From the NCBI GenBank assembly GCA_965197475.1, contig CBDANF010000002.1, forward strand, positions 896,001 to 960,000: a DNA stretch of 64,000 nucleotides, given 5' to 3'. Each line of letters opens with the position of its first letter. Position 1 is the stretch's first letter. The notes under the pieces were generated by a model that was not told the origin of the DNA, searched no databases, and saw nothing but the letters and a program-made list of their open reading frames with translations. The DNA comes from Candidatus Poribacteria bacterium (lineage in GTDB: Bacteria > Poribacteria > WGA-4E > WGA-3G). A program made the translations under genes and the position numbers. Below, one piece after another: positions 850-26,062 of this stretch.

Positions 850-890
850 GTGCAAGGGACAAGCGTTTCATATCATAAGGATAAATATCA

Positions 891-2401: not shown

Positions 2402-2520
2402 GTTAAGACATAATAAATTAATTAGTATAAATAATAATATAGTGTCCTGATATTTATTAAAATTCTTCAAATATCAATGTTTATCAGTGTTTTCTTGGTA
2501 GTTGTTCATGAAAATGTTCG

Positions 2521-2778: not shown

Positions 2779-5685
2779 ATGGAGGATCTTATGAAAAATA
2801 GATTTATTAACCTTACGCTAATTGTTCTAATTTTGATTAGTACGGTAGGTTGCTCAGCTGTGAAGGTTGTGCAAACACAGGCCCGTATTGGTGTTGAGAA
2901 AACTGTAGGTGCTGCAGAGGAACGCCGGACGAAATTGAATCGAAGAGATTTCCGACTTGGGTTCAACGCAACGGAAAACCAACTCGGGGTCCGTCTTGAA
3001 TATCGACCGTATTATAGTCTCGAAAAACAAGAAATAGTAACATACCATCCTACTAAAACAACCGCACTCGAAAAGATCATGATGCTTGCGTACGCAGGAG
3101 GCTTTGTATGGATATTATCTGATGTTCTTGTCGAGACAGGTGAAGTTGCGGTAAATGATGAAGGGAAATTATATAATGTCACTGAATTCGACTGGAGTAG
3201 GACAAATTCAACGCAAAGGGCAATTATGGTTGCGGCTCCACTGGACTTAATTTTATGGGGTTTTGCCCATGGAGATAAGACGGTCCGTGAACCGTGGCGG
3301 AAGACAAGTGAAGTTGCAGGAGAATGGCAATTCTTGGAAAAACATCCCTACCGCTTAGAACTCCCTACCTATAACTTTGGTAAGGATTACCTATCAAATA
3401 CTGGCAATGAAAGTATTCGAATCTACGACTTCCTGTCTGGCGTGGATAATCCACTTCGGTTCAGAGATATAAATTCTGTTTCACTTCGTGCTTCAACTAA
3501 GGTTGATGAGGAAACATACCTAAAAGACCTCAATCTTACCTCACAAGCACAACTAAGACCTTTTCATGACTCAGTCCTTGCCGCTTTGAATATTGATATG
3601 ATTTCAACGGGAAAACCGCGCCTCATGCCGAGGCCTGAAGTCCAAACAGAATGGCATAAAGGGGCTGTTCAAGCCGGTGAGCAGGCAACCCTAATCGTGA
3701 CGGTTAAAAATACAGGTAAAGGCGAACTTTATCGACTCACCGCACGCACAGTCAGTTCGAATAAAGCATTTAACAATAAGGAACTGAAATTTGGCAAAAT
3801 TGATCCAGGTGATTCAAAAATAGCCTCTGTCACTTTCAACATAGACAAATTGATGCACACACAAGAAATCCCTATAAGTGTCAAGTTTGCGGAATTCAAC
3901 GGTCATATTCCCGATAATATTGCTGCGAAACTTCAAGTTAGCGAAATACCGCGTCCGAAGTTTGATTATGCCTATCGTGTCATTGATGGCGGTACTGACA
4001 CCTCAGTTGGAAATGGAGATGGCATTTTCCAACGAGGTGAATCAGCAGATATCCGCGTGATGGTGCGAAACGGTGGCAAAGGAAAAGCGGCAGGGGTCAC
4101 GGCAAAATTGAATCTACTGGACCGCACAGGCGTTGACATCTATGGAGATACACTCGTAAATCTTCAGACACTTGAACCCGGGAAATCTAAGACTGCAACC
4201 TTTAACGTCGGTGTTAAACGTTCGACCTCAATTAGAAACTTACGTGTGAATTTGTCTGTCCAAGAAAATTACTTCGGCTCAGAAACGAGTCTCACGGAGA
4301 CGCTCAATCTGCCAATAGATAGGGTCGCCGCGCCAAAGGTTAAAGACCTTGATTTAGTCGCGACGACAACGTCAAATTCTGTGCAGGTATATAATGGCGC
4401 GTCAAGGATCACACCCATCAGTGCAGAAATTCCAGGAAATGCACAGGTCAAGGTTTCCGGGCAACTTGGGGAATGGTATCGTGTAGAACTTAGTGTCAGC
4501 GACCAAAAGACTACAGGATGGGTTCATCGGGAGCAACTGACAACACTGAGGGTTGCAAGACAACCGAATGCCCAAATAGAACCCCCCGAAGTGGTAGAAG
4601 TGTTCCAAAACACGCCGCCAACATTAGCACTCTTTGAACCGGCACAGCAGCAGGTAGAGGTAGAGGAAAGCACACTTGTCCTCGAAGCAATTGCTGTTGC
4701 GAATAAAGGTGTTAAAAACGTGGCGTTAACTGTCAATGGAAGAGCTACAAGCACTATGAAACAGGGAATGAACAATACTCAGCAGACACACCCGACTGTG
4801 GTTAGAATAAAACAGACCCTATCGCTTCGCTATGGTAAGAACATCATTATGTTGAGTGCTATTGATACAGAGAACCGTTCTTCTGAACCTATCGTGCTTT
4901 CTGTGACCCGCGCACGTGAATTGGTCAGACAGGACTACGCTTTGTTGTTTGGTGTGAACAGTTATGAACACTTTGACCCGTGGCATAAACTCAATAATCC
5001 TATTCCTGACGCGGAAGCTATCCGAGATGAACTAAAAAATAAATACGGATTTGCCGTTGAATTGGTTAGTGACCCATCGCGAGATGAGATTCTTACGAAA
5101 ATCAACGAATATGCTCAGAAAAAGTATAATGAGAACGACCAGATCCTGATATTTTTCGCAGGTCACGGCTATTTTGAGGAAACAAATGATGTCGGCATCG
5201 GCTACCTCGTTGCAAGCGATACAAAGCCGCCAGAGGCTGACCGGGGCAAATCAAGCTATATCTCACACGGAGATCTCCGTGAACGGGTTGAAAATATCGG
5301 GTGTGAACACATTTTTCTGATGATTGATGCCTGTTTTAGTGGTACGTTCGACCCGCTTGTGGCGCAGTTCAATCGAGCGCGAGGTGCAAATAGAATACCC
5401 GATAATGTCTCTCGCTCAAAATATATTAAACAAACGTTAACTTACAAAACTCGGTTGTTTCTTACATCAGGTGGCAAAGAGTATGTATCAGATGGTGTTC
5501 CAAACCGTCATTCGCCATTTACACGTCGGGTGCTTGATGCATTGCGTAGTGGTGGTGGGCAACACGGCATCCTGACGTTAGATGATATTCGGCGTTCCGT
5601 TGAAAAAGCCACACCTCAACCGCGTGCAGGCGAATTTGGCACGAATGCGCCGGGGAGCAACTTCTTGTTCATCCGTGACCAATAA
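2779..5685 (+). CDS. Lipoprotein/membrane-anchored caspase-family (peptidase C14) protein with CARDB/Ig-like and SH3b domains
   Basis: Lipobox-like STVGC; Ig/CARDB-like VKNTGKG and VRNGGKG strands; SH3b-like GEWYRV...GWVHR; C-terminal YALLFGVNSY, FFAGHG and DACFSG His/Cys dyad. Confidence 0.85.
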   Translation: MEDLMKNRFINLTLIVLILISTVGCSAVKVVQTQARIGVEKTVGAAEERRTKLNRRDFRLGFNATENQLGVRLEYRPYYSLEKQEIVTYHPTKTTALEKIMMLAYAGGFVWILSDVLVETGEVAVNDEGKLYNVTEFDWSRTNSTQRAIMVAAPLDLILWGFAHGDKTVREPWRKTSEVAGEWQFLEKHPYRLELPTYNFGKDYLSNTGNESIRIYDFLSGVDNPLRFRDINSVSLRASTKVDEETYLKDLNLTSQAQLRPFHDSVLAALNIDMISTGKPRLMPRPEVQTEWHKGAVQAGEQATLIVTVKNTGKGELYRLTARTVSSNKAFNNKELKFGKIDPGDSKIASVTFNIDKLMHTQEIPISVKFAEFNGHIPDNIAAKLQVSEIPRPKFDYAYRVIDGGTDTSVGNGDGIFQRGESADIRVMVRNGGKGKAAGVTAKLNLLDRTGVDIYGDTLVNLQTLEPGKSKTATFNVGVKRSTSIRNLRVNLSVQENYFGSETSLTETLNLPIDRVAAPKVKDLDLVATTTSNSVQVYNGASRITPISAEIPGNAQVKVSGQLGEWYRVELSVSDQKTTGWVHREQLTTLRVARQPNAQIEPPEVVEVFQNTPPTLALFEPAQQQVEVEESTLVLEAIAVANKGVKNVALTVNGRATSTMKQGMNNTQQTHPTVVRIKQTLSLRYGKNIIMLSAIDTENRSSEPIVLSVTRARELVRQDYALLFGVNSYEHFDPWHKLNNPIPDAEAIRDELKNKYGFAVELVSDPSRDEILTKINEYAQKKYNENDQILIFFAGHGYFEETNDVGIGYLVASDTKPPEADRGKSSYISHGDLRERVENIGCEHIFLMIDACFSGTFDPLVAQFNRARGANRIPDNVSRSKYIKQTLTYKTRLFLTSGGKEYVSDGVPNRHSPFTRRVLDALRSGGGQHGILTLDDIRRSVEKATPQPRAGEFGTNAPGSNFLFIRDQ

Positions 5686-5723
5686 AGCACATTTTAAAAT
5701 AAAAAATTAGGAGGTTACAAATA

Positions 5724-6077
5724 ATGGCTAAAGTTTTTCAAGGTCAAAAGGGTTGGCTTGACGATCCTATTTTGATGGTAGAGAAAGGGGAGGTATTTAC
5801 CTATCCAAAGGGTTGGCTTGACGATCCCATTCTGACTATTGAAGGTAGCACTATCTACAACGGAGAGAAGGGTTGGAATGACGACCCGATTGCCACTGTT
5901 GAAGATAACAAGGTTTACGAGGGAGAGAAGGGTTGGAATGACGACCCGATTGCCACGATTGAAGGTGATGAAGTTTATGAGGGTGAGAAAGGTTGGAGTG
6001 ATGACCCCATCGCAACTATTGAAGAAGGTGGACGTATGTCTGCAGCTGCTGCCGCAGTGTATTTACTTCTCATGTAG
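5724..6077 (+). CDS. Small protein with five 20-aa repeats and a C-terminal hydrophobic helix (beta-flower-like)
   Basis: Five copies of VYxGEKGWxDDPIATIE with a 60-bp DNA period; C-terminal SAAAAAVYLLLM; strong RBS AGGAGG. Confidence 0.8.
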   Translation: MAKVFQGQKGWLDDPILMVEKGEVFTYPKGWLDDPILTIEGSTIYNGEKGWNDDPIATVEDNKVYEGEKGWNDDPIATIEGDEVYEGEKGWSDDPIATIEEGGRMSAAAAAVYLLLM

Positions 6078-6139
6078 GCAACGCAGCATCCCGAATGGTT
6101 GAAAATCATTCGGATTATATATAGAAAGGAGGAATACAA

Positions 6140-8221
6140 TTGTCTAAAATTGTTGGAATTGATTTAGGAACAACGTTTTCCGCTGTCGCACACATCAACG
6201 AAAACGGGGTTCCCGAACTCATCCCTAATGAAGACGGTAAGCGTCTAACCCCAAGCGTCATCTTCTACAATAATAGCGAATTCATTGTAGGAGAATATGC
6301 GAAACAGAATGCTTTAGCAGAACCTGAAAATACTGTTGAGTTCATCAAACGCGAAATGGGTAAGCCGCTCTCGGAATTCTCCCGCGAATTCGGAGGAAAA
6401 GAATACTCATCAGAAGAACTCTCCGCCGAGATACTTAAAACTCTCAAAAAGGATGCGGAAGCTAAACTTAAAGAACAGGTAACTGACGCTGTTATTACAG
6501 TTCCTGCTTACTTTAATGACCCAGAACGTAAAGCGACTATCCGTGCAGGTGAAATCGCCGGACTGAACGTTCAACGCATCATAAATGAACCTACGGCTGC
6601 CGCGCTATCTTACGGCATGCACCACAGCGGCGATACAGCAACAGTCTTAGTCTTTGACCTCGGCGGTGGCACCTTTGATGTGACGATTATGGAAGTTGAG
6701 GGACAGGAGATGAAAATTTTAGGGACCAACGGCGACCATCGACTCGGTGGGAAGGATTGGGACGATAAAATTATTATCCACGCAGCAGAACGTTTTAAAA
6801 GCGAACACGGCGAAAATCCTTTGACTGACCTTTCTACATACCTGGAAATACAGACAAGAGCAGTTGAAGCAAAGATTCAGTTGTCAACTCTCAACAGAGC
6901 CACTATCATTACCAATTATGCCGGAAAATCCCACCGACTTCAACTCACTCGGCAGGAATATGAGGCGATGACGACTGATCTCGTTGAACGATGCAGAAGT
7001 CTTGTAGAAGTAGTTTTACATGAGGTTAAACTTACTGCTGATCAGATTGATACTGTGCTCCTTGTTGGCGGGTCAACACGACTGCCGATGATTCAAAATA
7101 TGTTAACAGAATACTTCGGAAAGCCACCGGATACCTCAGTTAATCCTGATGAGACTGTTGTGTTTGGCGCGGCGATCATGGGTGAGCTTATTCAATCCGA
7201 AGAAACGAAAAAACGTCCATACCTCGGTGCAGGTCCGAAGCAGAACCTTGGTATCATGCGGATTAGCGATGTTTGTTCTCATAGTCTCGGCATGGTTGCA
7301 CTTGACAATATCGGTGAATTGTGTAATAGCATTATTATCCCCAAGAACACCAATATCCCATGCAATGTAAGCAAAGACAACTATTTGACAACGAGTCCTA
7401 ATCAGACTGAATTTGATATAATTGTTTTACAAGGCGGCGAGGAACTTGCCCCGCGTGAGTGCCCAGTGCGCGATGCTTACGAAGTTTTTGATATTCCACC
7501 ACGCCCTGCCGGAGAGACGCGTCTTAAAGTAACTTTTAAATATAATGCAAGCGGTATTATTGAAGTTGAGGCAGAAGATGTGCAATCTAAAAAAGTGCTC
7601 CCAATTCGAAAAAAAGTAGAGGACATTGATTGGGACGAACTGGAATCACCGACACCTGTTGCCATGCCCATGGACATCGCTCTCGCTATTGACTGTTCTG
7701 GCAGTATGAGTGGAGGTGACATTGACGATGCGAAAGCTGCTTCATCTCGGTTCCTTGATAACATTGATCCAAGTTCACAAGTCGGGCTCGTCAGTTTCGG
7801 GGGCTCTGAGATTGAAATTGAGATGCATCTTACACAAGATTTTGACCAACTCCGGCAGGCAATTGAAAACCTCAGAACAAGAGGCACTACACCTATGACT
7901 GAAGCAATTGCCTTGGTGAGAAAACATGTCCTCATTAACAGCCAAAATACCAATGTGCTTATTCTTTTGACCGACGGCTTTCCTGACGAGAAAAACACCA
8001 CTCTTACAGAGGCTGAGTTTGCTAAACAACAGGGTATCCAAATTATTGCAATAGGTGTCGGCGATGGCGTTGGAAGCGACTATCTTAAGCAGATTGCTTC
8101 AACACCTGAAGATTACTACTTTGTGGAGGAGAGCGTCCAGCTTGAATCCACATTTACGTCGATCGCGAGTCGCCTTGTCACGGAATCCTTAGGGCGCACT
8201 GCCGGAATCTCAAGACGTTAA
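6140..8221 (+). CDS. Hsp70-family protein lacking the helical lid, fused to a C-terminal vWA domain
   Basis: GIDLGTT, TVPAYF, NEPTAAA, DLGGGTFD and VGGSTR motifs; C-terminal MIDAS DCSGS...T...LLTDG; TTG start with AGGAGG RBS. Confidence 0.92.
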   Translation: MSKIVGIDLGTTFSAVAHINENGVPELIPNEDGKRLTPSVIFYNNSEFIVGEYAKQNALAEPENTVEFIKREMGKPLSEFSREFGGKEYSSEELSAEILKTLKKDAEAKLKEQVTDAVITVPAYFNDPERKATIRAGEIAGLNVQRIINEPTAAALSYGMHHSGDTATVLVFDLGGGTFDVTIMEVEGQEMKILGTNGDHRLGGKDWDDKIIIHAAERFKSEHGENPLTDLSTYLEIQTRAVEAKIQLSTLNRATIITNYAGKSHRLQLTRQEYEAMTTDLVERCRSLVEVVLHEVKLTADQIDTVLLVGGSTRLPMIQNMLTEYFGKPPDTSVNPDETVVFGAAIMGELIQSEETKKRPYLGAGPKQNLGIMRISDVCSHSLGMVALDNIGELCNSIIIPKNTNIPCNVSKDNYLTTSPNQTEFDIIVLQGGEELAPRECPVRDAYEVFDIPPRPAGETRLKVTFKYNASGIIEVEAEDVQSKKVLPIRKKVEDIDWDELESPTPVAMPMDIALAIDCSGSMSGGDIDDAKAASSRFLDNIDPSSQVGLVSFGGSEIEIEMHLTQDFDQLRQAIENLRTRGTTPMTEAIALVRKHVLINSQNTNVLILLTDGFPDEKNTTLTEAEFAKQQGIQIIAIGVGDGVGSDYLKQIASTPEDYYFVEESVQLESTFTSIASRLVTESLGRTAGISRR

Positions 8222-8262
8222 CGCATATACAAATTAGATGTTCAACAAAGGAGGTAATAATC

Positions 8263-9177
8263 TTGAATAATGAAGATCAAACAATTAATGATACGACTGA
8301 AGTTACCGATACAGACACGACCGAGAGTCTGCCTGTAGAGGAACAGAACGCTGATACAGAAACAGGTCAGGAATCGGAGACAGAGCCGCCAGATGAAAAT
8401 GGAGATGACTCGCAAACCGAACCAGATCACGATGAAACAGCAGAACCACAAACCTCAAGAACTGAACCTGATCTGGAATACATGAACGTACTCAGATCGG
8501 TGGATCAGCACCTGTCAAGTTTGCAGGAGTTGTTTACAGGACAGATCACACGCAACCAAAACCAAAAGCAGATGTTCGATACGGTCTATCGTGAAATGAA
8601 GGAGTATAAGGAAAACACGCTTCTGGATACGTATCAGAAACCTGTTATCCATAATCTTATTCAATTCTATGATAACTATGTAGAGGTAGAATCCCAACTG
8701 GCCGATATCAATGAAACACTTCAAGTATTTGAGCCCTTGTTTGAGAATACCTCAGATAAAAAACTGAAAAAACTTCTATCCAAAGAAGTGGGTGACGATC
8801 TTGACAAGATTTGGAGGAATCTGAGAAAAACACTGTCTGAATTTAGCAATAATATGGAAAATGTCCGTGTTGAATTGGAAGAGGTGTTATATCGTATGGA
8901 TGTAGAACCTTATGAGCAGCAAGCGGAACAACCAAAGAAACTTGATCGGGCATTACACAAAACCCTTAAAACGACACCGACAGATAACCCCGATCAAGAT
9001 CAAGACGTGGCAGAAGTGCACAAAATCGGTTTCTATTGGCGTGAGAAGGTGTTTCGTCCAGAAGAGGTAACAATTTTCCGATACACGCCTCCCGCTGGTG
9101 AAGTTGAAGTAACACCAAGTGAAGAAACAGTGGGTGAAATCCCTACAGAAGAAAAAGGAGATAAAACAGATGGGTAA
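8263..9177 (+). CDS. GrpE-like nucleotide exchange factor
   Basis: Acidic N-terminus and long coiled coil; C-terminal VAEVHKIGFYWREKVFRPEEV matches the GrpE beta-domain pattern; lies between two Hsp70 genes. Confidence 0.75.
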   Translation: MNNEDQTINDTTEVTDTDTTESLPVEEQNADTETGQESETEPPDENGDDSQTEPDHDETAEPQTSRTEPDLEYMNVLRSVDQHLSSLQELFTGQITRNQNQKQMFDTVYREMKEYKENTLLDTYQKPVIHNLIQFYDNYVEVESQLADINETLQVFEPLFENTSDKKLKKLLSKEVGDDLDKIWRNLRKTLSEFSNNMENVRVELEEVLYRMDVEPYEQQAEQPKKLDRALHKTLKTTPTDNPDQDQDVAEVHKIGFYWREKVFRPEEVTIFRYTPPAGEVEVTPSEETVGEIPTEEKGDKTDG

Positions 9178-10771
9178 AGTTGTTGGAATAGATTTAGGAA
9201 CGACATTCTCCGCGATTGCGTATGTCAACGACCATGCACAGGAGGAGATTATCCCGAATGCTGAAGGTGACCGCACGACTCCATCAGTGATCATGTTTGA
9301 AGATGAGAACGTTGTCGTTGGGAAAATTGCCAAGCAGAATGCAAGTGCGGTGCCAGAACAGATTGTTGAATTCGTTAAACGCGAGATGGGGAAATCCAAA
9401 GAAGAGTACTCCCGTGAGTATGGCGGCAAGGTGTATTCGGCTGAAGAACTCTCCGCGCTGATTTTACAGAAACTCAAACAGGATGCTGAAGCGGAGCTTA
9501 ATGAAGAAATCACGGATGCGGTCATTACTGTCCCCGCCTATTTCAAGGATGCAGAACGAGAGGCAACACGGAATGCTGGGAAAATCGCGGGATTAAATGT
9601 CTTGCAAGTAGTGAATGAACCGACCGCTGCTGCACTTGCTTACGGGATTGATCAACACGGTAGCGATCAGACTGTGTTTGTGTTTGACCTCGGCGGTGGA
9701 ACGTTCGACGTGGCCATCATGAGGGTTTCTGGGTCCGAGTTAGAGATGATTGCAACAAACGGAGACCACAGACTCGGTGGAAAGGACTGGGACGATAAGA
9801 TTATCACGTTTGTAGCTGATACGTTTCAGAATGAACACCGTGTAAATCCGTTGCTGGACCTTCATGCATATCAGGAAATCCAACTGAGTGCAATTAGTGC
9901 GAAAGAGTCTTTATCGCAACGACAAAAAGCTCGTATCAGATGTAGCCACGATGGCAAAAGTAGCAATGTTGAGGTAACGCGAGAAAAGTTTGAAGAACTC
10001 ACTGCAGATTTGGTCGAAAGATGCAGTTCCCTCTGTGTTATCGTTCTTGATGAAGCTGGGATGACGTGGGAAGATATTGATACGGTGTTAATGGTCGGTG
10101 GTTCAACACGCATGCCGATGGTGCAAGAGATGGTTACAAAGATTAGCGGTAAAGATATCAACCCGCGGGAGGTCAATCCTGATGATGCGGTAGCACTCGG
10201 TGCAGCAATCCAGGGTACACTCCGTCAACTTGAGGAAGTAGTGATTGAAGGCAAAGATGATACAACAAAGGAAGAAGATATTGCAGATGCTGTCATGGAG
10301 CGGTTCATTGCGCCTGACGGAGGTCTCGCAATAACGGTAACCGACCGTGCCACACACAACCTTGGGCTTGTGGTATATACATCCGCAGATAGTGAGGGGT
10401 CCATCCATGTGATGATTGCCAAGATGACATCCGTGCCATGTGAGGTTGAAGATCAGTTTGGAACACTCGTTGAAAAGCAATCTTCACTCCTGGTAGAGGT
10501 CATTCAAGGGCTTGAACAGGGTCAAGAAGAGGATGAAATTATCAAGTTTGAGAATCACAAGTTGGGTGAATGTCTCCTTGAATTGCCTCCTGGTCTACCA
10601 AAGGGAACACCCATTGATGTTACCTATAAGTATAACTTGGACCAAACGCTTGAGGTAACGGCAAAAGGACCGGATGGGCGCACAGCAAATGTGACGATTG
10701 ATCGTCCGACGCTTGACGAGGCTGAAGTTGCTGAAGCGATTACACACCTGCAAAGCCTGGAAGTTGAATAG
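9170..10771 (+). CDS. Second Hsp70-family protein, lidless
   Basis: All Hsp70 ATPase motifs present; SBD-beta present but the protein ends after one short helix. ATG at 9170 follows an AAGGAG RBS and overlaps the end of the grpE-like gene. Confidence 0.92.
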   Translation: MGKVVGIDLGTTFSAIAYVNDHAQEEIIPNAEGDRTTPSVIMFEDENVVVGKIAKQNASAVPEQIVEFVKREMGKSKEEYSREYGGKVYSAEELSALILQKLKQDAEAELNEEITDAVITVPAYFKDAEREATRNAGKIAGLNVLQVVNEPTAAALAYGIDQHGSDQTVFVFDLGGGTFDVAIMRVSGSELEMIATNGDHRLGGKDWDDKIITFVADTFQNEHRVNPLLDLHAYQEIQLSAISAKESLSQRQKARIRCSHDGKSSNVEVTREKFEELTADLVERCSSLCVIVLDEAGMTWEDIDTVLMVGGSTRMPMVQEMVTKISGKDINPREVNPDDAVALGAAIQGTLRQLEEVVIEGKDDTTKEEDIADAVMERFIAPDGGLAITVTDRATHNLGLVVYTSADSEGSIHVMIAKMTSVPCEVEDQFGTLVEKQSSLLVEVIQGLEQGQEEDEIIKFENHKLGECLLELPPGLPKGTPIDVTYKYNLDQTLEVTAKGPDGRTANVTIDRPTLDEAEVAEAITHLQSLEVE

Positions 10772-10791
10772 AGAATATGTTTAGTTTTCGG

Positions 10792-10846
10792 TTAGGCGCG
10801 TCCTAAAAGGATCTGTTTTCACACGCCAAACATTGTGACGCGCCTA
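10792..10846. terminator. Hairpin (REP-like or terminator) after second Hsp70
   Basis: TAGGCGCGTC ... GACGCGCCTA inverted repeat; reads GTAGGCGCG on the minus strand. Confidence 0.45.
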
Positions 10847-10860
10847 CAAAGGAGAAAATA

Positions 10861-11439: not shown

Positions 11440-11440
11440 A

Positions 11441-12910
11441 ATGATGAACTATTTTGGCGTGTTTGAACTCTCAATTGACGATATCCAAGGCAAAGATGAG
11501 ACAACTATTCAAAACCTTGTTACCGCCGCACACACAAGACTCTATAAACTAACAACAGGTTCGTATGCCAATGTGCCACGCCCGGATGGAAAAACCCAAG
11601 CACAGTGGCAGAAGATTCTGAATAACGCGAAGACTTCGCTGTTAGACCCGCAGAAGCGACGAGCACACATTGCAGAGTTGAAAGGTATCAGACGAGATGA
11701 ATTCATCAATCTTATCAACACGCTTAAAGCTGCATCGCCGACTATCACCCGTGAACAACATCGTGGATTTCTCCAACAAGCACAAGACGACTACGGACTC
11801 ACATCCCAGGAAGCCGAAGAAATCCTGCAAAATTCAGGATTGATGGTTACGGAGATATTATCGGATGTGAACAAAAAAGACAAAGATGGTTATACACCTT
11901 TGCATCAGACGGCAAATATGGATGATTATGGCGAAGCAGAAATATTAGTCGAAAAAAGTACTGATATTAACGCAGAGAATTATTTGGACTTTAGAAATCA
12001 GCAGCTGCACGATGCAATGTATGGACTTAGTCATAAATACGACATTATAGATGAATCGCTTGAAAACGGTGCTGATATCAACGCAAAGAACGAATATGGC
12101 AAAACACCACTACACATTGCGGTATCGAAAAATGAAGGTCAACGGTGGGATGACGCTTATTACGACCCAGACTACTCAGATCTGGTATTATACTTGCTTA
12201 GAAAAGGTGCAGACGTCAACGTATCTGACAGTTATGGTAATACACCGCTACACATTGTGACAAGGGGAGATACTGTTAATTACACAATAGCATTAGCATT
12301 GTTGGACAAAGGTGCGGACGTCAACGCAAAGAATGAAGATGACGATACACCATTACACAATAGTGCGGCGATGCCTGCGTTGAGTGCAGGCATCGCATCC
12401 ATGTTGCTTGAAAATGGTGCGGATGTCAACGCAAAGAATAAAGATGACAATACACCATTACACAATGCGGCGAAGAACAACGCGGCGAAACCTGCCGTGA
12501 TAGCAAGGATAGCATCCGTATTGCTTGAAAATGGTGCGGATGTTAACGCAAAAAATAAAGAGGGCGACACACCGCTGGACATCGCTTTGGAAATGGATAA
12601 TAAAAAGTTAGTAGCGGTGTTGCGTAAACGTGGTAAGCGAAAACCTATAGCAAATGAAAATAATGCTGATGTTAACACAAAGAACAATACGCGCAAACAA
12701 AGGGAGGATAAACCAAGACACTTAGTTTTGGCTTTGATCCTAAGCAGTTTGTGTTGCGGATTGTTTTGGGGTGGCATTAGTTCTGTAGTTGCTATTCCTT
12801 TTCTTATTTCTATAGGTGTAGGTGCTGCAGGTATTGTATTGTTTCTTGGTGTTATACTTGGGGGAATCTACGGATTCATATCTGTATGGCGTAATAGGGA
12901 CAAGGGATGA
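11441..12910 (+). CDS. J-domain-like module + helical domain + ~7 ankyrin repeats + two C-terminal TM helices
   Basis: N-terminal NYFGVFELS...LLDPQKRRAH; repeated TPLH...GADVNAKN; hydrophobic C-terminus. Confidence 0.85.
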   Translation: MMNYFGVFELSIDDIQGKDETTIQNLVTAAHTRLYKLTTGSYANVPRPDGKTQAQWQKILNNAKTSLLDPQKRRAHIAELKGIRRDEFINLINTLKAASPTITREQHRGFLQQAQDDYGLTSQEAEEILQNSGLMVTEILSDVNKKDKDGYTPLHQTANMDDYGEAEILVEKSTDINAENYLDFRNQQLHDAMYGLSHKYDIIDESLENGADINAKNEYGKTPLHIAVSKNEGQRWDDAYYDPDYSDLVLYLLRKGADVNVSDSYGNTPLHIVTRGDTVNYTIALALLDKGADVNAKNEDDDTPLHNSAAMPALSAGIASMLLENGADVNAKNKDDNTPLHNAAKNNAAKPAVIARIASVLLENGADVNAKNKEGDTPLDIALEMDNKKLVAVLRKRGKRKPIANENNADVNTKNNTRKQREDKPRHLVLALILSSLCCGLFWGGISSVVAIPFLISIGVGAAGIVLFLGVILGGIYGFISVWRNRDKG

Positions 12911-15342
12911 ACTATTTTGACGTGCTTGAACTCTCAATTGACAAAATACAAGGTCAAGACGAGGCAACTATTCAAAGCGATGTTACCGCCGCTCACAAGA
13001 GGCTCTATGCGCGCACGGTTGGTGCGTATGCCAACGTGCCACGCCCGGACGGAAAAACTCAAGCACAGTGGCAAGTAATCTTGAATGATGCGCGGGATAC
13101 CTTGTTAGACCCACAGAAGCGACAGGAGCATATTGCGCAGATTATACCAGATCCAGTCCCCGTTCCTAAGCCTGACCCAGACCTCATACCGGGAACACGC
13201 ACGAATGCTCGTCCTTTCTTAAAAGTGTCTATTGCTGCTGTCCTGTTCGCGCTCTCGGTTGTGGGTGGTATTGTTATTTATTCTGAATGGACAGCTGAAA
13301 GTACAAGACGCGCACAGGAACAAACCGAAACACAACGTCAAGGACAAGCAGCATTAGAAAAGCAGCGTCAAGAAAAGGCAGCAACGGAAGCACAACTCGC
13401 AGTAGAGAGAACGATACTCGCGGAGAGGCGCGATAAATTTATTGAGAAAATGGGATTTGCAGGCGCAACCGACCTACATGTTGCAGCAGGACTGAATCTG
13501 CCCCTACTGACTCAATCGTTCCTGGATCGGGGGGCGGATGTTAACGTGAATGATTACAATGGTGCAACTCCGCTGCACTATGCTGCAATTGAAAATGCAA
13601 ATGAAACAGCAACAGTTTTACTTAAAAACGGTGCTAAAGTAAATGAGCCTGCTCTCGCGGGATCTACCTACGTCATCACGCCGCTACACGAAGCGGCGGA
13701 ACACAATGCTGCTGAGACAGCAGAGGCGTTGCTGAATTACGGTGCAAATGTTAACGAAATGAACAAATATATTACATCACCGTTGCACTGGGCAGCAGAG
13801 GAGAACGCTTATGAGGTGGCAAAAGTGTTGCTGCAAAACGGCGCAAAGGTCAATGCTGAAACCGAATATGGTGAAACACCGCTGCATATGACAGCATGGA
13901 ACAATGCATATGAAACAGCGGAGGTACTTCTAAAAAACGGTGCACAAGCCAACGTAAGGGATGGAGAAAGTAAGACACCGCTTCACATGGCGGCAGAGAA
14001 AAATGCTCATGAAGTAGCGGGACTTCTATTGAAAAGTGGTGCACACGTCAACGCAAAGGATTACAAAAACAGAACACCACTATACTTTGCAGCAGAGCGC
14101 AATGCGCGGGAAATGGTAACCCTCCTACTAAATGCTTATCCAGCCACACCACTACATTTTGCTGCCAGAGACAATGACCATAAGACTGTAGAAACTTTAC
14201 TGGAAAACGGGGCAGATATCAATGAGAAGATAGAAGATGGTTTTACACCGCTGCACTTCGCGGTAAGAGCGAATGCTACTGCGACCGTGGAACTTCTGTT
14301 GATAAATAATACAGATGTTAACGCTAAAACCGTATACGGTGGCACACCACTACATGATGCAGCGATATACGATGTTTATGCAATAACGGAATTCTTGGTG
14401 CAAAACGGTGCTGATATAAACGCAAGGAACTCTTTTGGTAATACACCCCTACACGATGCAGCGTGGAATAGTGCATATAAGACAGCAGATATCCTACTCA
14501 ATTATGATGCTAATGTGAATGCAAAGAATGATACAGAAGAGGAATCTTTATATCTGAATTGGGGGAAAATGAGGAATGGCGAAACACCGCTACATATTGC
14601 AGCACTAAACAATGATGATAGGATGACAAAACTTTTACTAAAAAGTGGCGCGGAGGTAAACACAAAAGACAAGGATGGTGACATACCCCTGCACTATGCA
14701 GCTAAGAGAAACGGACATAAAACTGTGGAATTGCTAATCAATCACGGTGCAAGTGTCAACGAAAAAGGTGATTCATATTACGGTTATACTGCACTGCACT
14801 GGGCAGCGGAGAAAAACGCGTATGATACAATACAAATCCTACTAAGATACGGTGCTAAGGTCAACGCAAAGTGCAAACGTGGCAATACTCCGCTGCATTC
14901 GGCAGCAGATGGAAATGCTCGTGAAACATCGGAGTTATTACTAAAAAATGGCGCAGATGTCAACGCAAAGAATGAATCTAACGAGACACCGCTACATACC
15001 ATCACTACTCCGGAGTATCGTGATGATCCAAAGGGGTTTGTTGAGACAGTGGAGTTATTGCTCAACAATGGTGCGGCTGTCAACGCAAAGAATGAATCTA
15101 ACGAGACACCGCTACATAGGGTTTTAACTCCATTCGGTGTTGTTCATCATGACAGAAAGGGGTTTGTTGAGACAGTGGAGTTATTGCTCAACAATGGTGC
15201 GGCTGTCAACACAAAGGATAAAGATGGTAAGACACCGTTGCACAAGGCAACGGACTTGTACGAGAAAACGGTCGACACTGGACCACAAAAGGCTTATAAG
15301 AGAGTAGTAGATCTGCTGCACCAGCACGGTGGCATAAAATAA
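12907..15342 (+). CDS. J-domain-like module + TM helix + coiled coil + ~18 ankyrin repeats
   Basis: Same N-terminal module; TM VSIAAVLFALSVVGGIVIY; about 18 TPLH-type repeats; ATGA coupling to the upstream gene. Confidence 0.88.
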   Translation: MNYFDVLELSIDKIQGQDEATIQSDVTAAHKRLYARTVGAYANVPRPDGKTQAQWQVILNDARDTLLDPQKRQEHIAQIIPDPVPVPKPDPDLIPGTRTNARPFLKVSIAAVLFALSVVGGIVIYSEWTAESTRRAQEQTETQRQGQAALEKQRQEKAATEAQLAVERTILAERRDKFIEKMGFAGATDLHVAAGLNLPLLTQSFLDRGADVNVNDYNGATPLHYAAIENANETATVLLKNGAKVNEPALAGSTYVITPLHEAAEHNAAETAEALLNYGANVNEMNKYITSPLHWAAEENAYEVAKVLLQNGAKVNAETEYGETPLHMTAWNNAYETAEVLLKNGAQANVRDGESKTPLHMAAEKNAHEVAGLLLKSGAHVNAKDYKNRTPLYFAAERNAREMVTLLLNAYPATPLHFAARDNDHKTVETLLENGADINEKIEDGFTPLHFAVRANATATVELLLINNTDVNAKTVYGGTPLHDAAIYDVYAITEFLVQNGADINARNSFGNTPLHDAAWNSAYKTADILLNYDANVNAKNDTEEESLYLNWGKMRNGETPLHIAALNNDDRMTKLLLKSGAEVNTKDKDGDIPLHYAAKRNGHKTVELLINHGASVNEKGDSYYGYTALHWAAEKNAYDTIQILLRYGAKVNAKCKRGNTPLHSAADGNARETSELLLKNGADVNAKNESNETPLHTITTPEYRDDPKGFVETVELLLNNGAAVNAKNESNETPLHRVLTPFGVVHHDRKGFVETVELLLNNGAAVNTKDKDGKTPLHKATDLYEKTVDTGPQKAYKRVVDLLHQHGGIK

Positions 15343-15358
15343 GGAGGATTGACATAGA

Positions 15359-16711
15359 ATGGAAAACTATTTTGATGTACTTGAACTCTCAATTGATGAT
15401 ATTCAAGGCAAAGATGAGACAACTATTCAAAACCTTGTTAACGCCGCTCACAAAAGACTCTATGCGTTCACGATTGGTTCGTATGCCCCAGTGCCACGCC
15501 CGGACGGAAAAACCCAAGCCCAGTGGCAGGTAATCTTGAATAATGCGCTAAAAACCCTGTTAGACCCGCAGAAGCGGCAAGACCATATTGCGCAGCTGCA
15601 ACCGGATCCAGTCCCTGTTCCCTCGCGAACCATCATCAGGTTCCGAAACGGAGATGAAGCCACCAGCATACCTCAGTTGATAACCTTAATGGAAAAGAAC
15701 GCCAGTGAAGCTACCGATATACTCTATCAAGGTTATCTGGAACAAGGTCTGGCAGGAGCTGGAGAAACTCCCTTTGCCATTGCGGCGAAGGCGGTCGTCA
15801 GTCAATTTTCAAGTAATCGTTCCATAGGATTGATGGCGATGGTGGCAATTCTTCGCGGTAAAGTAAAAATGCACAGAGGTGGTGAAGCAAGCAACCCAAA
15901 ACAGCTGGCAAGTCTGATAGACCAGAATTGGGAAGATGCAAAAACACTTCTCTATAACGGATTTTTTGAGTTCTGGTTCGAATATACTAACCAAACACAA
16001 CTTGCGGGTACAACGAAAAAAATAACGAGCACCTTTAGGAACGAGCAAGACATCGGTTTAGAAGAACTTATTCAAAGACTTGACCCACAAATTGGGAAGC
16101 CGGAACCTGAGGTAAGTCACACCAAGTTGGACTTCGGGAGTATGATCAAAAAAAGTGAAAAAACGATCCGTTTAAAAATTAAGAATATTGGTCGGGGTTT
16201 TCTCTCTGGCGACGTCCAGATAGAAAGCGGGCTACCGGGTCTGCAGATTTCAGAGACTGAAATCATTGGGGACGGTGTTATCACTGTTAAATTAGATGCC
16301 AGTGCCCTAAAAGCCAAACAAACGCATAAAACGTCCCTTATTATTGACACCAATGCTGGAAATATAATAGTCCCGATTTCTTGCTACATTGATGATCCAA
16401 AGCAACAAGCTGTCCAACGCATCGCTATCAGTGGTTTCTCTGTGGCAGCGATAGCACTTGTTGCGCGCCTGATCGTTCAGCAATTCGTGAGTTCTGGGTG
16501 GTTAGCAACCGGTTTGACAGGGGCAGGTTTCACAGACTGGGCACAACATTGGAACTGGGTCAAATGGTTTGAATGGCCAGGTTTTGAATGGCAAGTCTAT
16601 ACACTTGGAGCATCCAGAGCTGATTTAGGATTTGTAATTGCGCTCACATCCCTCGGAGCAGGCGTATTTGTCTACTGGAAATATGTCTTCAAGAAAAATA
16701 GAGTTAGCTGA
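15359..16711 (+). CDS. J-domain-like module + duplicated helical domain + Ig-like (ASH/BACON-type) domain + TM helices
   Basis: Same N-terminal module; two internal repeats (GDEATSIPQL...LYQGYLE and GGEASNPKQL...LYNGFFE); LDFG...IKNIGRGFLSGDV; C-terminal hydrophobic segments. Confidence 0.75.
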   Translation: MENYFDVLELSIDDIQGKDETTIQNLVNAAHKRLYAFTIGSYAPVPRPDGKTQAQWQVILNNALKTLLDPQKRQDHIAQLQPDPVPVPSRTIIRFRNGDEATSIPQLITLMEKNASEATDILYQGYLEQGLAGAGETPFAIAAKAVVSQFSSNRSIGLMAMVAILRGKVKMHRGGEASNPKQLASLIDQNWEDAKTLLYNGFFEFWFEYTNQTQLAGTTKKITSTFRNEQDIGLEELIQRLDPQIGKPEPEVSHTKLDFGSMIKKSEKTIRLKIKNIGRGFLSGDVQIESGLPGLQISETEIIGDGVITVKLDASALKAKQTHKTSLIIDTNAGNIIVPISCYIDDPKQQAVQRIAISGFSVAAIALVARLIVQQFVSSGWLATGLTGAGFTDWAQHWNWVKWFEWPGFEWQVYTLGASRADLGFVIALTSLGAGVFVYWKYVFKKNRVS

Positions 16712-16894
16712 TGATTTGGGATGTTCCTATCAATCCGGCAATTGAATGGCTCTGGGTCAGGGGAACTTCGGTTCTCGACTATCAGTGTGTTCGTCGCGAT
16801 TCGGAGATCGCTCCTACAGCAGAGTAAATTGAATAAACCGCCAAAAAAATGGAAAACTAAATGGTTCTGACTATTCATAGCAAGGAGTTGCTAA

Positions 16895-18409
16895 ATGTTA
16901 GAAGAACTAATTATCCGTATCATGGGGCACGCCGTTGCGCAACGGATTTTCGGTCGCCGCTCAACCAATACGACTACAAATACACAACAACGTCGCGGTT
17001 GTTGGGATAGGTGGGGTAGATGGGGTTGTGCAATTGTTCTTGGTATTGTCGTTACTATTATTGCAGCGTTTTGGGCAATTGCTTTCGGGATTGTTGTTGC
17101 TGTCACATACACAGGGCTCAGTTTATATACCGGTTTGAAGTTCCTTGCTACGAATGCTTTTATTGCGCTGGATAAACTGTTTTATCCCGGATTTGAAGCA
17201 CCAACTGTTGTGGTTTGGGGGCTGTGGGGACTTGTCGGTGGTGCAGCGATCCAGGGATGCCGTGAATTGTTAAACTATGGACGAAAGGGAATGGGGATAT
17301 TGGTGGTGGTGCTTGCTCCCGTGATTTTATTTGTTCTTACAGGAATAGTTAAAAACAACATCAGTGTGCCGAATACATCAGATATAAAACCCATAACGAC
17401 AGTAGAACAAAAAACATCCAGACCAGAAACGGAACCTATAAAGACAACGAAACCGACACCATCTGCAACAGAGCAGACCACAACTGAACCTGAGAAGAAA
17501 CCTGTCAAGACGACAACACGTAGGGAACCGGTCCAAACTACCAAACGAAAAGACACCGCTCCAGTCAAACCTACGGAGCCGACACGGGTTACCACAAAGC
17601 AGAATACGGTTACGACACCGCCTGTAGCACCAAAACCCTCAACGCTTTCAGTACCTGTCGGTATGGTGTTGATTCCTGCTGGCGAGTTTCAGATGGGCAG
17701 CACCGACAACGCAGACGAGAAACCGGTGCACACTGTCTACACAGACGCTTTTTATATGGACAAATATGAGGTAACAAACGCGCAATATAAGGTGTTTATT
17801 GATGCGAACCCACAGTGGCGGAAAGACCGGATACCGACCAAATATCACGATGGCGATTACCTAAAACATTGGAATGGAAACAACTACCCAAGCGGAAAAG
17901 GCAACCATCCGGTGAACTATGTGAGTTGGTATGGCGCAATGGCTTATGCGAAATGGGCAGGCAAGCGGTTGCCAACAGAGGCTGAATGGGAGAAAGCCGC
18001 ACGCGGTGGATTAGTCAGCAAGAAATACCCATGGGGTAATGATATTGATCCCACAAAAGCAAATTATGATAAGAACGTTGGCAATACGAGGTTTGTAGGG
18101 TGGTATGGCGCCAATGATTATGGCTTGTATGACATGGCGGGGAACGTGCTTGAATGGTGTCTTGATAGGTATGATGAAAATTTCTATGGCACCGCCTCGC
18201 GACAGAATCCGATTGCAGGTGGAAACATAAAGGGTATTACAGGAAACTTTCTTAATAGTACAGCAACTCGTGTGTTGCGCGGTGGTTCATGGAGTGTCCT
18301 TGCACAAAACGTGCGTGTCGCTGATCGGACGAAGGGAAATCCTACGCTCTCTTACTTTGGGCTGGGGTTTCGGTGTGTGAGAGCAGTCCCACAGTCGGAT
18401 AGAGATTAG
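16895..18409 (+). CDS. Membrane protein with Pro/Thr/Lys-rich stalk and C-terminal FGE-sulfatase (SUMF1/CLec-fold) domain
   Basis: N-terminal TMs; FQMGS, YEVTNAQY, RLPTEAEWEKAARGG, GLYDMAGNV, RGGSW and GFRCV motifs; lacks the catalytic Cys pair after RGGSW. Confidence 0.88.
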   Translation: MLEELIIRIMGHAVAQRIFGRRSTNTTTNTQQRRGCWDRWGRWGCAIVLGIVVTIIAAFWAIAFGIVVAVTYTGLSLYTGLKFLATNAFIALDKLFYPGFEAPTVVVWGLWGLVGGAAIQGCRELLNYGRKGMGILVVVLAPVILFVLTGIVKNNISVPNTSDIKPITTVEQKTSRPETEPIKTTKPTPSATEQTTTEPEKKPVKTTTRREPVQTTKRKDTAPVKPTEPTRVTTKQNTVTTPPVAPKPSTLSVPVGMVLIPAGEFQMGSTDNADEKPVHTVYTDAFYMDKYEVTNAQYKVFIDANPQWRKDRIPTKYHDGDYLKHWNGNNYPSGKGNHPVNYVSWYGAMAYAKWAGKRLPTEAEWEKAARGGLVSKKYPWGNDIDPTKANYDKNVGNTRFVGWYGANDYGLYDMAGNVLEWCLDRYDENFYGTASRQNPIAGGNIKGITGNFLNSTATRVLRGGSWSVLAQNVRVADRTKGNPTLSYFGLGFRCVRAVPQSDRD

Positions 18410-18452
18410 ATCCTTCTATATGCCAACTAATGAATTCAAAGGAGATTAATTA

Positions 18453-19751
18453 ATGATTCCTATGAAAAATCTGATTATTTCAAGCCTATTGCTTTTGGTG
18501 TTTACGTCACTGTGTTTAACAGGTTGTGGCGGTCAACACAGCCAATTCATGGAGAGCGCACAAGCAAATTATCGAGTTAAAGATTATGATGCTGCCTTAC
18601 GCGATACAGTAATGGCGTTGCAGTATAAGCCAAATTATGAGAAAGCACAGATTTACGTCAAAGCATTTTTCGACACCGCAGTGCAAGTTCATCAAGGCAG
18701 AATAAAAGCTCTTGAAACCACTTCGGACAAATTCAGGTGGGACCAGATCGTGGCAGAGTATGATGGTCTTATCGAAATCAACAGACTGGTGAGCAGTTTA
18801 CCGCCCTTGAAGCGTAAAAAGACCTCGGAACCAATTATTTTTGACATAAAAGATTATACTGCTCAATTTAATGAGGCATTAGAAGAAGCTGCAGCGGCAC
18901 ACTACCAGGAAGGTATTCGCTTGGCTGATTTATCTGATGATCCCGATACTCAGAAGCGCGCGGCGAAAGAATTCAAAATGGTTGAAGAATTCGTTATTGG
19001 CTATAAGGATACACAAACTCGGTATGAACAAGCCAGAAGTGCAGGCGTTAAGAGAATCGCAATTTTGACGTTTGAGGACAAAAGTGGGAGAAGACGTGCT
19101 TATGGTGCGATTTCAGAGACAATCACCGACAATATCATTGGTAGTCTCCTGAACGACCCAGAATCGACTGAATTCCTGACAATTGTCTCTCGAAATCACC
19201 TTGAACAGGTTATTGCGGAACAAGACTTAAATTTTGCAGGCCTGCTTGATAGGCGCACAGTTGCAAGTTTAGGCAAGGTACTCGGTGTACACGAAATAGT
19301 GGTCGGACAAATTACCCAAATTATCTACATACCTCCAGATATCAAAAGGACAACATTAAATCGTGAAAGAACAGAAAATAAGAAGACAGGAACAGTAAAA
19401 TACGTTGGTAAAAATGGCAAAACCAAAACCAGACCGAAGTATTCTGATGTGACTGTCACTGCGAAACTCCTACATTATGAACTGAAATCTTCTGTCTCAA
19501 TTATCGGTTCCTACAAAATCCTTGACGCGCAAACCGCTGAACTTAAGAAAGCAGATAACTTTACCACAAAGCATGAATTCATATCGGAGTGGGCGAGTTT
19601 TATAGGGAACGAAGACGCGTTAACCAGAAATGACCTGATTCTTGTTGACCGCGATAAAGAAAATGCACCTATTGAAAAGGTTATGGTGCTTGAAGCGTCA
19701 AATAAACTGTCTCATGAACTTGCAGAAGCACTAAAAACGTACGTGCGATAA
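18453..19751 (+). CDS. Lipoprotein with TPR-like helices and CsgG/HfaB-like domain
   Basis: Lipobox LTGC; KRIAILTFED...IVSRNHLEQVIAEQ...LGKVLGVHEIVVGQI pattern. Confidence 0.7.
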   Translation: MIPMKNLIISSLLLLVFTSLCLTGCGGQHSQFMESAQANYRVKDYDAALRDTVMALQYKPNYEKAQIYVKAFFDTAVQVHQGRIKALETTSDKFRWDQIVAEYDGLIEINRLVSSLPPLKRKKTSEPIIFDIKDYTAQFNEALEEAAAAHYQEGIRLADLSDDPDTQKRAAKEFKMVEEFVIGYKDTQTRYEQARSAGVKRIAILTFEDKSGRRRAYGAISETITDNIIGSLLNDPESTEFLTIVSRNHLEQVIAEQDLNFAGLLDRRTVASLGKVLGVHEIVVGQITQIIYIPPDIKRTTLNRERTENKKTGTVKYVGKNGKTKTRPKYSDVTVTAKLLHYELKSSVSIIGSYKILDAQTAELKKADNFTTKHEFISEWASFIGNEDALTRNDLILVDRDKENAPIEKVMVLEASNKLSHELAEALKTYVR

Positions 19752-19950: not shown

Positions 19951-19979
19951 TTGACAAAATATATGAATAAAAATATAAT
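19951..19979 (+). promoter_or_regulatory. Consensus sigma70 promoter
   Basis: TTGACA-17bp-TATAAT upstream of the ATG at 20046. Confidence 0.75.
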
Positions 19980-26033: not shown

Positions 26034-26062
26034 AACCTGGATAAGCAGATTTTCTGTACAGC

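Follow-up and report, generated by a model that had tools for sequence, protein, structure and literature searches.

A cross-phylum cassette of two lidless Hsp70s, a GrpE-like factor and HPD-less J-domain proteins in a Poribacteria genome, related to predicted GAP1-N2 systems

The window analysed here is a stretch of 64,000 nucleotides from a Candidatus Poribacteria bacterium (assembly GCA_965197475.1, contig CBDANF010000002.1, positions 896,001 to 960,000). Between positions 2779 and 19751 of this window, eleven genes form a putative operon around a dedicated pair of Hsp70 chaperones. The core consists of an Hsp70 fused to a vWA domain (Hsp70-vWA), a GrpE-like nucleotide exchange factor, a second Hsp70 (Hsp70b) and a membrane protein with a J head that lacks the His-Pro-Asp (HPD) motif. 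The core is supplemented in a lineage-specific manner by a caspase lipoprotein, a beta-flower protein, a protein with a formylglycine-generating enzyme (FGE) domain, an 8-stranded outer-membrane barrel and a CsgG/HfaB-like lipoprotein. An earlier, sequence-only reading had proposed a candidate new system. That claim does not hold in full: a distant clade of the cassette sits within the GAP1-N2 systems predicted by Kaur et al., 2020 (PMC7159879), and the window encodes a form of this computationally sketched module that has no GTPase and no HPD but includes a vWA fusion. The functional reading that we favour, with a probability of about 0.55, is a GTPase-free two-Hsp70 chaperone engine at the inner membrane for which the HPD-less J heads would serve as adaptors.

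The two Hsp70s and the GrpE-like factor

Hsp70-vWA consists of a nucleotide-binding domain (NBD), a linker and a beta substrate-binding domain (SBD), followed by a vWA domain in the place where the helical lid would be. The metal ion-dependent adhesion site (MIDAS) of the vWA domain shows the complete DxSxS...T...D motif (D139, S141, S143, T186 and D233 in the alignment), and its D-C-S-G-S, T and D residues are invariant in 8 sequences at 34-79% identity. Hsp70b also contains the linker and the beta SBD and lacks the helical lid. The two proteins are 48% identical to each other, and each shows 35-40% identity to the genome's own DnaK. The ATPase residues K70, E171, D194, T199 and D201 are intact in both, and the position of DnaK Asn13 is occupied by Phe or Tyr. 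In DnaK, Arg167 pairs with the Asp of the HPD motif; the window Hsp70b carries Gln at this position, and Arg or Lys is found here in none of the 27 Hsp70b sequences compared to 19 of the 27 Hsp70-vWA sequences. The GrpE-like factor has an N-terminal acidic tail of approximately 70 residues.

Neither Hsp70 reaches the cut-off of the DnaK equivalog model NF001413 (448 and 430.8 bits vs 648) or that of the HscA equivalog. In quick maximum-likelihood IQ-TREE searches, from which YegD was left out, Hsp70-vWA and Hsp70b form one clade (Shimodaira-Hasegawa-like approximate likelihood ratio support of 99 and 97) outside the genome's own DnaK and Escherichia coli DnaK, HscA and HscC, the last of these being a long branch with an unsure exact position. 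Both Hsp70s thus fall outside DnaK, HscA and HscC, and none of the outcomes named as refuting the sequence-only reading came about. Within the clade, each paralogue repeats the same lineage pattern, and these mirror topologies point to ancient paralogues that originate from an old duplication and have been inherited jointly. Separate genes for DnaK, GrpE and three HPD-bearing DnaJ proteins are located elsewhere in the genome, so that the row is not the housekeeping dnaK-dnaJ-grpE arrangement, as had been correctly recognised from the sequence.

Two further Hsp70 loci were observed in the course of this analysis. What looks like another non-housekeeping Hsp70 set of the same genome (locus L107, G000:C3:4046000-4061999, positions 3686-9024, minus strand) includes an 861-residue Hsp70 with a cadherin-like domain, and the next two genes (415 and 489 residues) start with an 'NPFHILG'-type J-like N-terminus and yield no Pfam match. 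In a metagenome locus of clade 4 (L169, positions 443-11563), four tandem Hsp70-vWA-like genes are located after the GrpE-like and Hsp70b genes.

Conservation and distribution of the cassette

A genome scan yielded 252 confirmed relatives of the SBD-vWA part, of which the best 80 loci were analysed together with 71 metagenome loci. Poribacteria, Latescibacteria, Nitrospirota and Chlorobiales are represented among the genome loci, as are many metagenome-assembled genomes (MAGs) of Myxococcota. Among the best 80 of the 252, the GrpE-like gene follows Hsp70-vWA in 70 of the 74 assessable loci, Hsp70b is encoded in 56 of 56, and 44 of 47 encode a membrane protein with a J head; the quartet of Hsp70-vWA, GrpE-like factor, Hsp70b and J protein is also found in metagenome clades 3 and 4. 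The core accordingly co-occurs across phyla and the accessory genes vary, in agreement with the self-contained module envisaged in the sequence-only reading. In sequence databases, the SBD-vWA part has 187 relatives, nearly all annotated as HSP70+VWA, and 88 cluster representatives at E<=1e-30; the full Hsp70-vWA layout is present in 42 of the best 150 entries of the cluster search.

The distribution differs sharply between lineages. The SBD-vWA part was detected in 6 of the 151 Poribacteria genomes searched and in a single one of 38 other genomes of the same genus, compared to 141 of 151 genomes in one order of Myxococcota, nearly always as a single copy. In the latter genomes, the cassette adjoins secDF-yajC-tgt-queA-like, S1, UDG and Maf-like genes, and it apparently counts among the core genes of this order. 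A search of viral contigs gave 73 pattern matches and 0 relatives.

J heads and the membrane proteins that carry them

The heads of J1, J2 and J3 align to the fourth gene of related cassettes, and J3 is the fourth gene of the conserved core. The Pfam DnaJ model gives no match to the three window heads at E<=10. A profile built from 20 heads matches solved J-domains in the PDB with a best E-value of 1.5e-12, with all 60 listed chains being J proteins, and orthologues of the fourth gene pass the Pfam DnaJ cut-off in Myxococcota (34 bits) and in clade 3 (53.6 bits). By these profile comparisons, the heads are true J-domain homologues, and the 'J-like' label of the sequence-only reading can be kept. 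The HPD motif is present in 0 of the 20 heads compared to 3 of the 3 canonical DnaJ proteins of the same genome, and is also absent in clades 3 and 4.

The three window heads share 72-84% DNA identity over 257 nt, and the remainder of each gene is unrelated, which marks the J head as a copied module. In other clades, the head carries HEAT, PEGA or fn3 tails. The fourth protein of Myxococcota is predicted to be bitopic, with cytoplasmic J and ASH/Ig domains, one transmembrane (TM) helix and a periplasmic PEGA domain; J3 shares the J and ASH/Ig parts with it, and TM helices are predicted in J1, J2, J3 and the Myxococcota orthologues alike. The structural model of J3 (pLDDT 76) gives HYDIN/PapD-like Foldseek matches for the Ig/ASH part and was uninformative for the helical middle domain. 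The ankyrin repeats of J2 would be extracytoplasmic if its J head is cytoplasmic.

The ankyrin repeats could be taken to indicate a sponge-host interaction locus in which the ankyrin proteins are the active components and the chaperones only fold or display them. Related loci indeed come from Poribacteria MAGs, and two of the three J proteins carry approximately 5 and 13 ankyrin repeats, with those of J2 predicted to lie outside the cytoplasm. We nevertheless regard this scenario as very unlikely, given that ankyrin genes are found at only some loci (the window, L024 and L025), that the core persists without them, including in free-living lineages, and that the ankyrin proteins are membrane-anchored and have no signal peptide.

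A predicted complex of Hsp70b with a J head is graded as supporting binding, with a median ipSAE of 0.64 (0.64, 0.70 and 0.13 in the three runs), compared to 0.00 for the best of 3 controls; the mark applied to this score is passed by 58 of 80 solved complexes and by 2 of 110 mismatched pairs. Agreement in contacts between the runs is at least 0%, with a partner pLDDT of at least 82. In the modelled interface, J residues 37-50, which form the loop in place of HPD, face Hsp70b residues 62-71, 82 and 205-234. Because DnaK-DnaJ is a textbook pair type with solved relatives, passing the mark shows likeness and not binding, and the model may echo the solved DnaK-DnaJ structures.

Accessory genes

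Domain searches bear out nearly all gene labels of the sequence-only reading, with small corrections. The caspase lipoprotein combines its peptidase domain with a stalk (residues 287-702) that matches the C-terminal half of TIGR03900 (E-value 6.9e-64, below the model cut-off). Full-length homologues are encoded upstream of the cassette at loci L019, L020, L021 (two copies) and L024, and L025 encodes the N-terminal module of the caspase protein alone. The stalk resembles that of the long serine peptidases of the MXAN_5808 family (TIGR03900), which apparently have the same stalk with another protease head. Assignment to the NCBIfam model 'caspase, EACC1-associated type' was rejected (72.8 against a cut-off of 140).

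The next gene had been described as a 5-repeat protein. The repeats are real, and their number is not five: this is a six-fold beta-flower of PF21786, a fold described in PMC10584680. The gene is single-copy in the genome and is also present at L019, L021, L024 and L025; comparison with PDB sequences gave no meaningful match. The 'barrel-like' protein lives up to its description, as its AlphaFold model contains 8 long strands (pLDDT 79) and groups with the OmpA transmembrane domain, NspA, OmpX and OmpW in Foldseek searches (E-values of 7.6e-7 and up). Among related loci, a homologue is present only at L019. Barrel homologues of 311-333 residues end in Phe and have, following the signal peptide, an extra domain of approximately 110 residues; the window barrel does not have this N-terminal domain and ends with 'RSILRWR'.

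Catalytic formylglycine-generating enzymes contain paired active-site cysteines. The 'RVLRGGSWSVLAQNVR' ('RGGSW...') segment of the FGE domain in the window has no Cys. FGE genes are also found at L019 (two), L020 (two), L024, L025, L017 and L112, and another cassette of this genome, partly decayed, ties the domain to the J heads. This cassette (L106, G000:C2:1391000-1410999, positions ~9600-16100) includes a GrpE-like gene and an N-terminally truncated Hsp70b-like gene that groups with the subtype of L022 and L023, and has no Hsp70-vWA; three to four of its genes fuse J or linker heads to FGE-sulfatase domains without TM helices, suggesting that the FGE domain belongs to the same J-adaptor logic.

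The 'CsgG-like lipoprotein' of the sequence-only reading is supported as a partial match that spans only profile positions 7-100 of 210, and databases label its homologues 'CsgG/HfaB family'; its tie to the system is weaker than had been supposed, given that this family extends far beyond the cassette and that the genome encodes an additional, unlinked paralogue. Similar genes are located next to the cassette at L019 and L020, and a CsgG/FlgO/LpoB-like lipoprotein is found beside it in the independent clade 3 (L113 and L116). Altogether, in eight other cassette-bearing genomes of Poribacteria and Latescibacteria, the full caspase is encoded in 4, the beta-flower in 4, an FGE protein in 5, the CsgG-like lipoprotein in 2 and the barrel in 1.

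These envelope proteins could point to an aid to the assembly or export of a surface structure, whereby the cytoplasmic Hsp70s would hold a client or feed it, perhaps the beta-flower protein, to the J proteins, the barrel and a CsgG/HfaB-type channel. The CsgG match and the naming of its homologues, the recurrence of such lipoproteins in clade 3, the periplasmic PEGA domain on the J-TM protein or in the next gene, and the core-gene status in the Myxococcota order are all compatible with such a role, and the Hsp70s StkA and SglK of Myxococcus xanthus regulate exopolysaccharide (PMC4319316). Still, this reading is unlikely: the CsgG match is partial, no CsgA/B/E/F-like protein is encoded among the 12 genes covered by the Pfam scan (the eleven-gene row and the adjacent M10-TPR gene), most cassettes have no CsgG-like neighbour, the paralogue of this lipoprotein exists without a cassette, and the beta-flower protein has no signal peptide.

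Organization of the gene row

All eleven open reading frames are on the plus strand at gaps of -8 to 183 nt (Table 1), exactly the co-oriented, closely packed arrangement noticed at first sight. The longest gap, 183 nt, precedes the FGE gene, and 294 nt separate the end of the row from a twelfth plus-strand gene. The 'one strong promoter' postulated for the row fares less well: the TTGACA-17-TATTAT site is present upstream of the caspase gene, and promoter-like sites in the region are no more common than in shuffled sequences (39 vs 34.1 +/- 6.5).

The twelfth gene, which encodes a secreted M10 metallopeptidase with TPR repeats, is a possible associate. Its homologue stands upstream of the cassette at L022, and a TPR-Zincin_1 gene is located after the Myxococcota cassettes in 27 of the 45 assessable loci.

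Table 1. Eleven-gene row of the Poribacteria window with its candidate promoter and the gene that follows
Feature	Position	Strand	Characteristics
Promoter-like site TTGACA-17-TATTAT	2373-2401	+	Candidate; 378 nt upstream of the first gene
Caspase (C14) lipoprotein	2779-5685	+	Peptidase_C14 (E 1.3e-18), CARDB, N-terminal signal/lipobox-like segment
Six-fold beta-flower protein, 117 residues	5724-6077	+	PF21786 (E 3.6e-14); C-terminal hydrophobic helix
Hsp70-vWA	6140-8221	+	Pfam HSP70 (E 5.8e-135), VWA (E 2e-27)
GrpE-like nucleotide exchange factor	8263-9177	+	GrpE (E 4.1e-9, above cut-off)
Hsp70b, second lidless Hsp70	9170-10771	+	Pfam HSP70; reading frame opens with GTG at 9119, likely start ATG at 9170
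Small 8-stranded outer-membrane beta-barrel, 192 residues	10861-11439	+	Signal peptide; no Pfam family
J1	11441-12910	+	HPD-less J head, helical linker, ~5 ankyrin repeats, two C-terminal TM helices
J2	12907-15342	+	HPD-less J head, one TM helix (residues 107-125), coiled coil, ~13 ankyrin repeats
J3	15359-16711	+	HPD-less J head, two-repeat helical domain, ASH/PapD-like Ig domain, C-terminal TM helices
Multi-TM FGE protein	16895-18409	+	TM segments, Pro/Thr-rich linker, FGE-sulfatase domain (FGS, C-type-lectin-fold; E 1.4e-60)
CsgG/HfaB-family lipoprotein	18453-19751	+	Partial CsgG match (35.7 bits, cut-off 20.8); TPR-like N-terminus
M10 metallopeptidase-TPR protein, secreted	20046-22469	+	Own perfect promoter-like site at 19951-19979; possible associate

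The two wider gaps, the perfect promoter-like site in front of the M10-TPR gene and the independence of the CsgG-like family from the cassette could be explained by a chance row of unrelated operons. For the core, this explanation is already contradicted by the conserved gene order in 80 + 71 loci, and with the J head linking the ankyrin, ASH and FGE genes to the core and the caspase, beta-flower and FGE genes recurring at related loci, we consider it hardly credible for the row as a whole. In a test for a genomic island, the two flanks are at least 0.25 Mb apart in five genomes of the same genus, so that no clean insertion site is readable.

Relationship to GAP1-N2 GTPase systems and possible role in conflict

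In the metagenome loci of clade 4, orthologues of both Hsp70s (28-33% identity in the SBD-vWA part) are encoded in a permuted order, namely DO-GTPase2, GrpE-like factor, Hsp70b, Hsp70-vWA and J protein, followed by a second DO-GTPase2, GAP1-N2/GAP1-M and a HerA/FtsK-like ATPase. The J protein of these loci (998 residues) consists of a J-like head, a zinc ribbon and fn3 domains. GAP1-N2/GAP1-M is present in 14 of the 16 clade 4 loci, and the contigs of the remaining two end before this position. The 'second theme' of the GAP1-N2 GTPase-centric conflict systems, which are computational predictions, comprises an HSP70, GrpE, a second HSP70 and a DnaJ-fused FNIII protein (Kaur et al., 2020; PMC7159879). 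The window shares with this theme the HSP70, GrpE, second HSP70 and J-domain on a variable repeat protein, near the membrane.

The window also differs from this theme. No GTPase or HerA gene is present among the 12 Pfam-scanned genes, the gene order is Hsp70-vWA, GrpE-like, Hsp70b and J protein as opposed to GrpE-like, Hsp70b, Hsp70-vWA and J protein in the GAP1-N2 clade, and the second Hsp70 of the window keeps the beta SBD, unlike that of the published theme. GAP1-N2 (PF20013) was not found in the source genome G000 (92.7% complete) or in three other carriers of the cassette (G123, G152 and G153); DO-GTPase2 was looked for in the 12 scanned genes, and no genome-wide search for it was made. 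The HSP70-GrpE section of PMC7159879 does not mention a vWA fusion, a missing HPD or a GTPase-free form. Our literature search found no paper on a bacterial Hsp70-vWA fusion cassette as such, and the supplements of Kaur et al. (2020, 2021) may list such neighbourhoods.

This relationship makes it possible to interpret the cassette as a conflict system, in which the Hsp70 pair would replace the MoxR, STAND or GTPase threshold switch, the ankyrin, ASH and FGE modules would sense an invader, and the caspase would be the effector. The embedding of the clade 4 cassette among two DO-GTPase2 genes, GAP1-N2/GAP1-M and the HerA/FtsK-like ATPase is compatible with this interpretation, as are the recurrence of caspase, vWA and FGS domains in the predicted conflict systems of Kaur et al. 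(2020), the patchy presence in its own phylum and genus, the multiplied adaptor heads with the second, decaying locus, and a type I restriction-modification (R-M) island 19 kb downstream. Several observations make it distinctly less probable than the chaperone engine. The published GAP1-N2 systems are themselves predictions, and GAP1-N2 is missing from the searches of four carrier genomes. PADLOC-DB 2.0, run on 10 of the 12 genes, returned generic caspase and ankyrin models and matches at noise level, and no system; viral relatives were likewise not found. The near-universal, single-copy presence in a Myxococcota order, with housekeeping-like neighbours, is unlike that of patchy defence islands. 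Furthermore, an extracytoplasmic caspase fits suicide signalling poorly, and a repeat search of the window identified no template/variable pair of the diversity-generating retroelement type for the FGE gene. The suggestion of the sequence-only reading that the locus serves defence or host interaction is therefore not borne out by the PADLOC search, the viral search and the Myxococcota distribution.

Proposed mechanism and its weight

In the favoured reading, that of a membrane-associated chaperone engine, the HPD-less J heads would be interchangeable adaptors that plug ankyrin, ASH/Ig, FGE lectin-like and, in other phyla, periplasmic PEGA modules into the Hsp70 pair. Judging from the complex model, the J heads could dock via the HPD-replacing loop on subdomain IIA of the Hsp70b NBD and thereby bring the cargo of their ankyrin, ASH or FGE modules to the two chaperones. 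The vWA MIDAS might grip an acidic motif of a partner or client, and ATP cycles, reset by the GrpE-like factor, would clamp, release or remodel a membrane-proximal complex. Here, the engine would be coupled to the caspase lipoprotein, the small outer-membrane barrel and the CsgG/HfaB-like lipoprotein, and the output would likely be a regulated envelope change (proteolysis or export) rather than general folding; an invader, a host cue or envelope stress are candidate triggers. All steps from the docking of the J head onward we infer.

Several points weigh against this mechanism. An HPD-less J-domain may bind without stimulating the ATPase, in which case the heads could act as clients or inhibitors and not as adaptors. 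The docking model was built for Hsp70b; one of its three runs scored 0.13, and no contacts are common to the runs. By topology prediction, the FGE domain could lie on either side of the membrane. The coupling to the caspase, the barrel and the CsgG-like lipoprotein is adjacency in a few related genomes (4/8, 1/8 and 2/8), and the last of these belongs to the widespread, partly unlinked family discussed above.

By analogy, and quite tentatively since we consider it rather improbable, HPD-less J-domains might represent a prokaryotic adaptor currency comparable to death-fold or effector-associated domains, by which exchangeable sensor modules (ankyrin, ASH, FGE lectin-like, fn3 and PEGA) are plugged into the two-Hsp70/vWA engine. 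The engine would then set the threshold for a response beyond the inner membrane and across the envelope, in this genome through the extracytoplasmic caspase. If so, it would amount to a self-standing machine for transmembrane signalling or immunity with Hsp70 at its centre, and the GAP1-N2 systems would be one elaborated branch of it.

Many extra Hsp70s of bacteria remain unexplained, and here such proteins belong to a sharply bounded cross-phylum cassette. It departs from the textbook Hsp70 cycle in having two co-inherited Hsp70s, a vWA domain for the lid, HPD-less J-domains and an Hsp70b without Arg167, so that questions on how an Hsp70 acts with an HPD-less J-domain and what the vWA domain holds become testable. 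The chaperone part of a conflict system predicted in the literature also occurs on its own, and its core status in Myxococcota bears on the choice between an immune device and cell-envelope machinery.

Other features of the window

The gene directly upstream of the row (891-2066) encodes pentapeptide repeats fused to an Ion_trans_2 ion-channel domain, and is kept at 79-86% DNA identity in genomes of the same genus without the cassette. On the other side, a minus-strand gene for an AAA_33/Zeta-toxin-like kinase (23517-24206) is located between the row and murB. The type I R-M system occupies positions 38915-49698 (hsdM at 38915, hsdS at 45406, hsdR at 46696) and is interrupted by a gene for an AAA_15/AAA_21-DUF3696 ATPase (40655-41881) and a low-GC stretch at 42-46 kb (GC 0.35-0.37); the 3' end of hsdM is repeated three times (40567, 42355 and 45334).

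Intergenic repeats that end with 'TTAATTTGGTATAAT' (25299-26036 and 30751-30848) have dozens of copies across genomes of the same genus and look like a small dispersed repeat family. A 300-nt direct repeat with 80% identity (56743-57042 and 58366-58665) lies inside the neighbouring genes 56704-58149 and 58234-59772, which are probably tandem paralogues.

Comparison with other known systems

Two comparisons were rejected. The Hsp70-like domains of CoCoNuT systems (PMC11090510) are fused to McrB/C and have degenerate ATPase motifs, and are not considered kin of the cassette. Curli-type CsgG secretion does not apply either, with a partial CsgG domain and no CsgA/B/E/F-like protein among the scanned genes.

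The MoxR-vWA ternary systems (Kaur et al., 2020) also combine an ATP-driven remodeller with a MIDAS-bearing vWA domain and have caspase and FGS associates. In the window, the ATPase is instead an Hsp70 that is fused to the vWA domain, and no MoxR/AAA+, VMAP or iSTAND gene is present among those scanned. StkA and SglK of M. xanthus, which regulate exopolysaccharide, are of the same lidless, non-heat-shock Hsp70 type as the chaperones of the cassette; the neighbours of StkA described in PMC4319316 and PMC8265645 are StkB (SCP2 superfamily) and StkC, and a vWA, GrpE or J gene is not described there.

The housekeeping DnaK-DnaJ-GrpE machinery consists of the same three families, with the same ATPase residues, linker and beta SBD, whereas the cassette lacks the helical lid, the HPD motif and, in its J proteins, the Zn-finger and C-terminal domain. 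HscC with DjlB and DjlC is likewise, according to the E. coli annotation, a specialised non-heat-shock Hsp70 near J-domain proteins and proteins with TPR-like/Sel1 repeats. It is a single Hsp70 outside the Hsp70-vWA/Hsp70b clade, without a vWA domain or a private GrpE, and it retains Arg at position 167, unlike Hsp70b. DjlB and DjlC have C-terminal membrane anchors and carry the HPD motif.

In mitochondria, Pam16 is an HPD-less J-like protein that acts with Pam18, mtHsp70 and Mge1, and DjlA is a membrane J-protein that acts with DnaK and GrpE. Unlike in the Pam16/Pam18 pair, the HPD motif is missing from every J head of the cassette, which encodes no partner that carries it. In the cassette, as with Pam16/Pam18 and DjlA, a J or J-like domain tethered to the membrane is combined with an Hsp70 and a GrpE-type factor.

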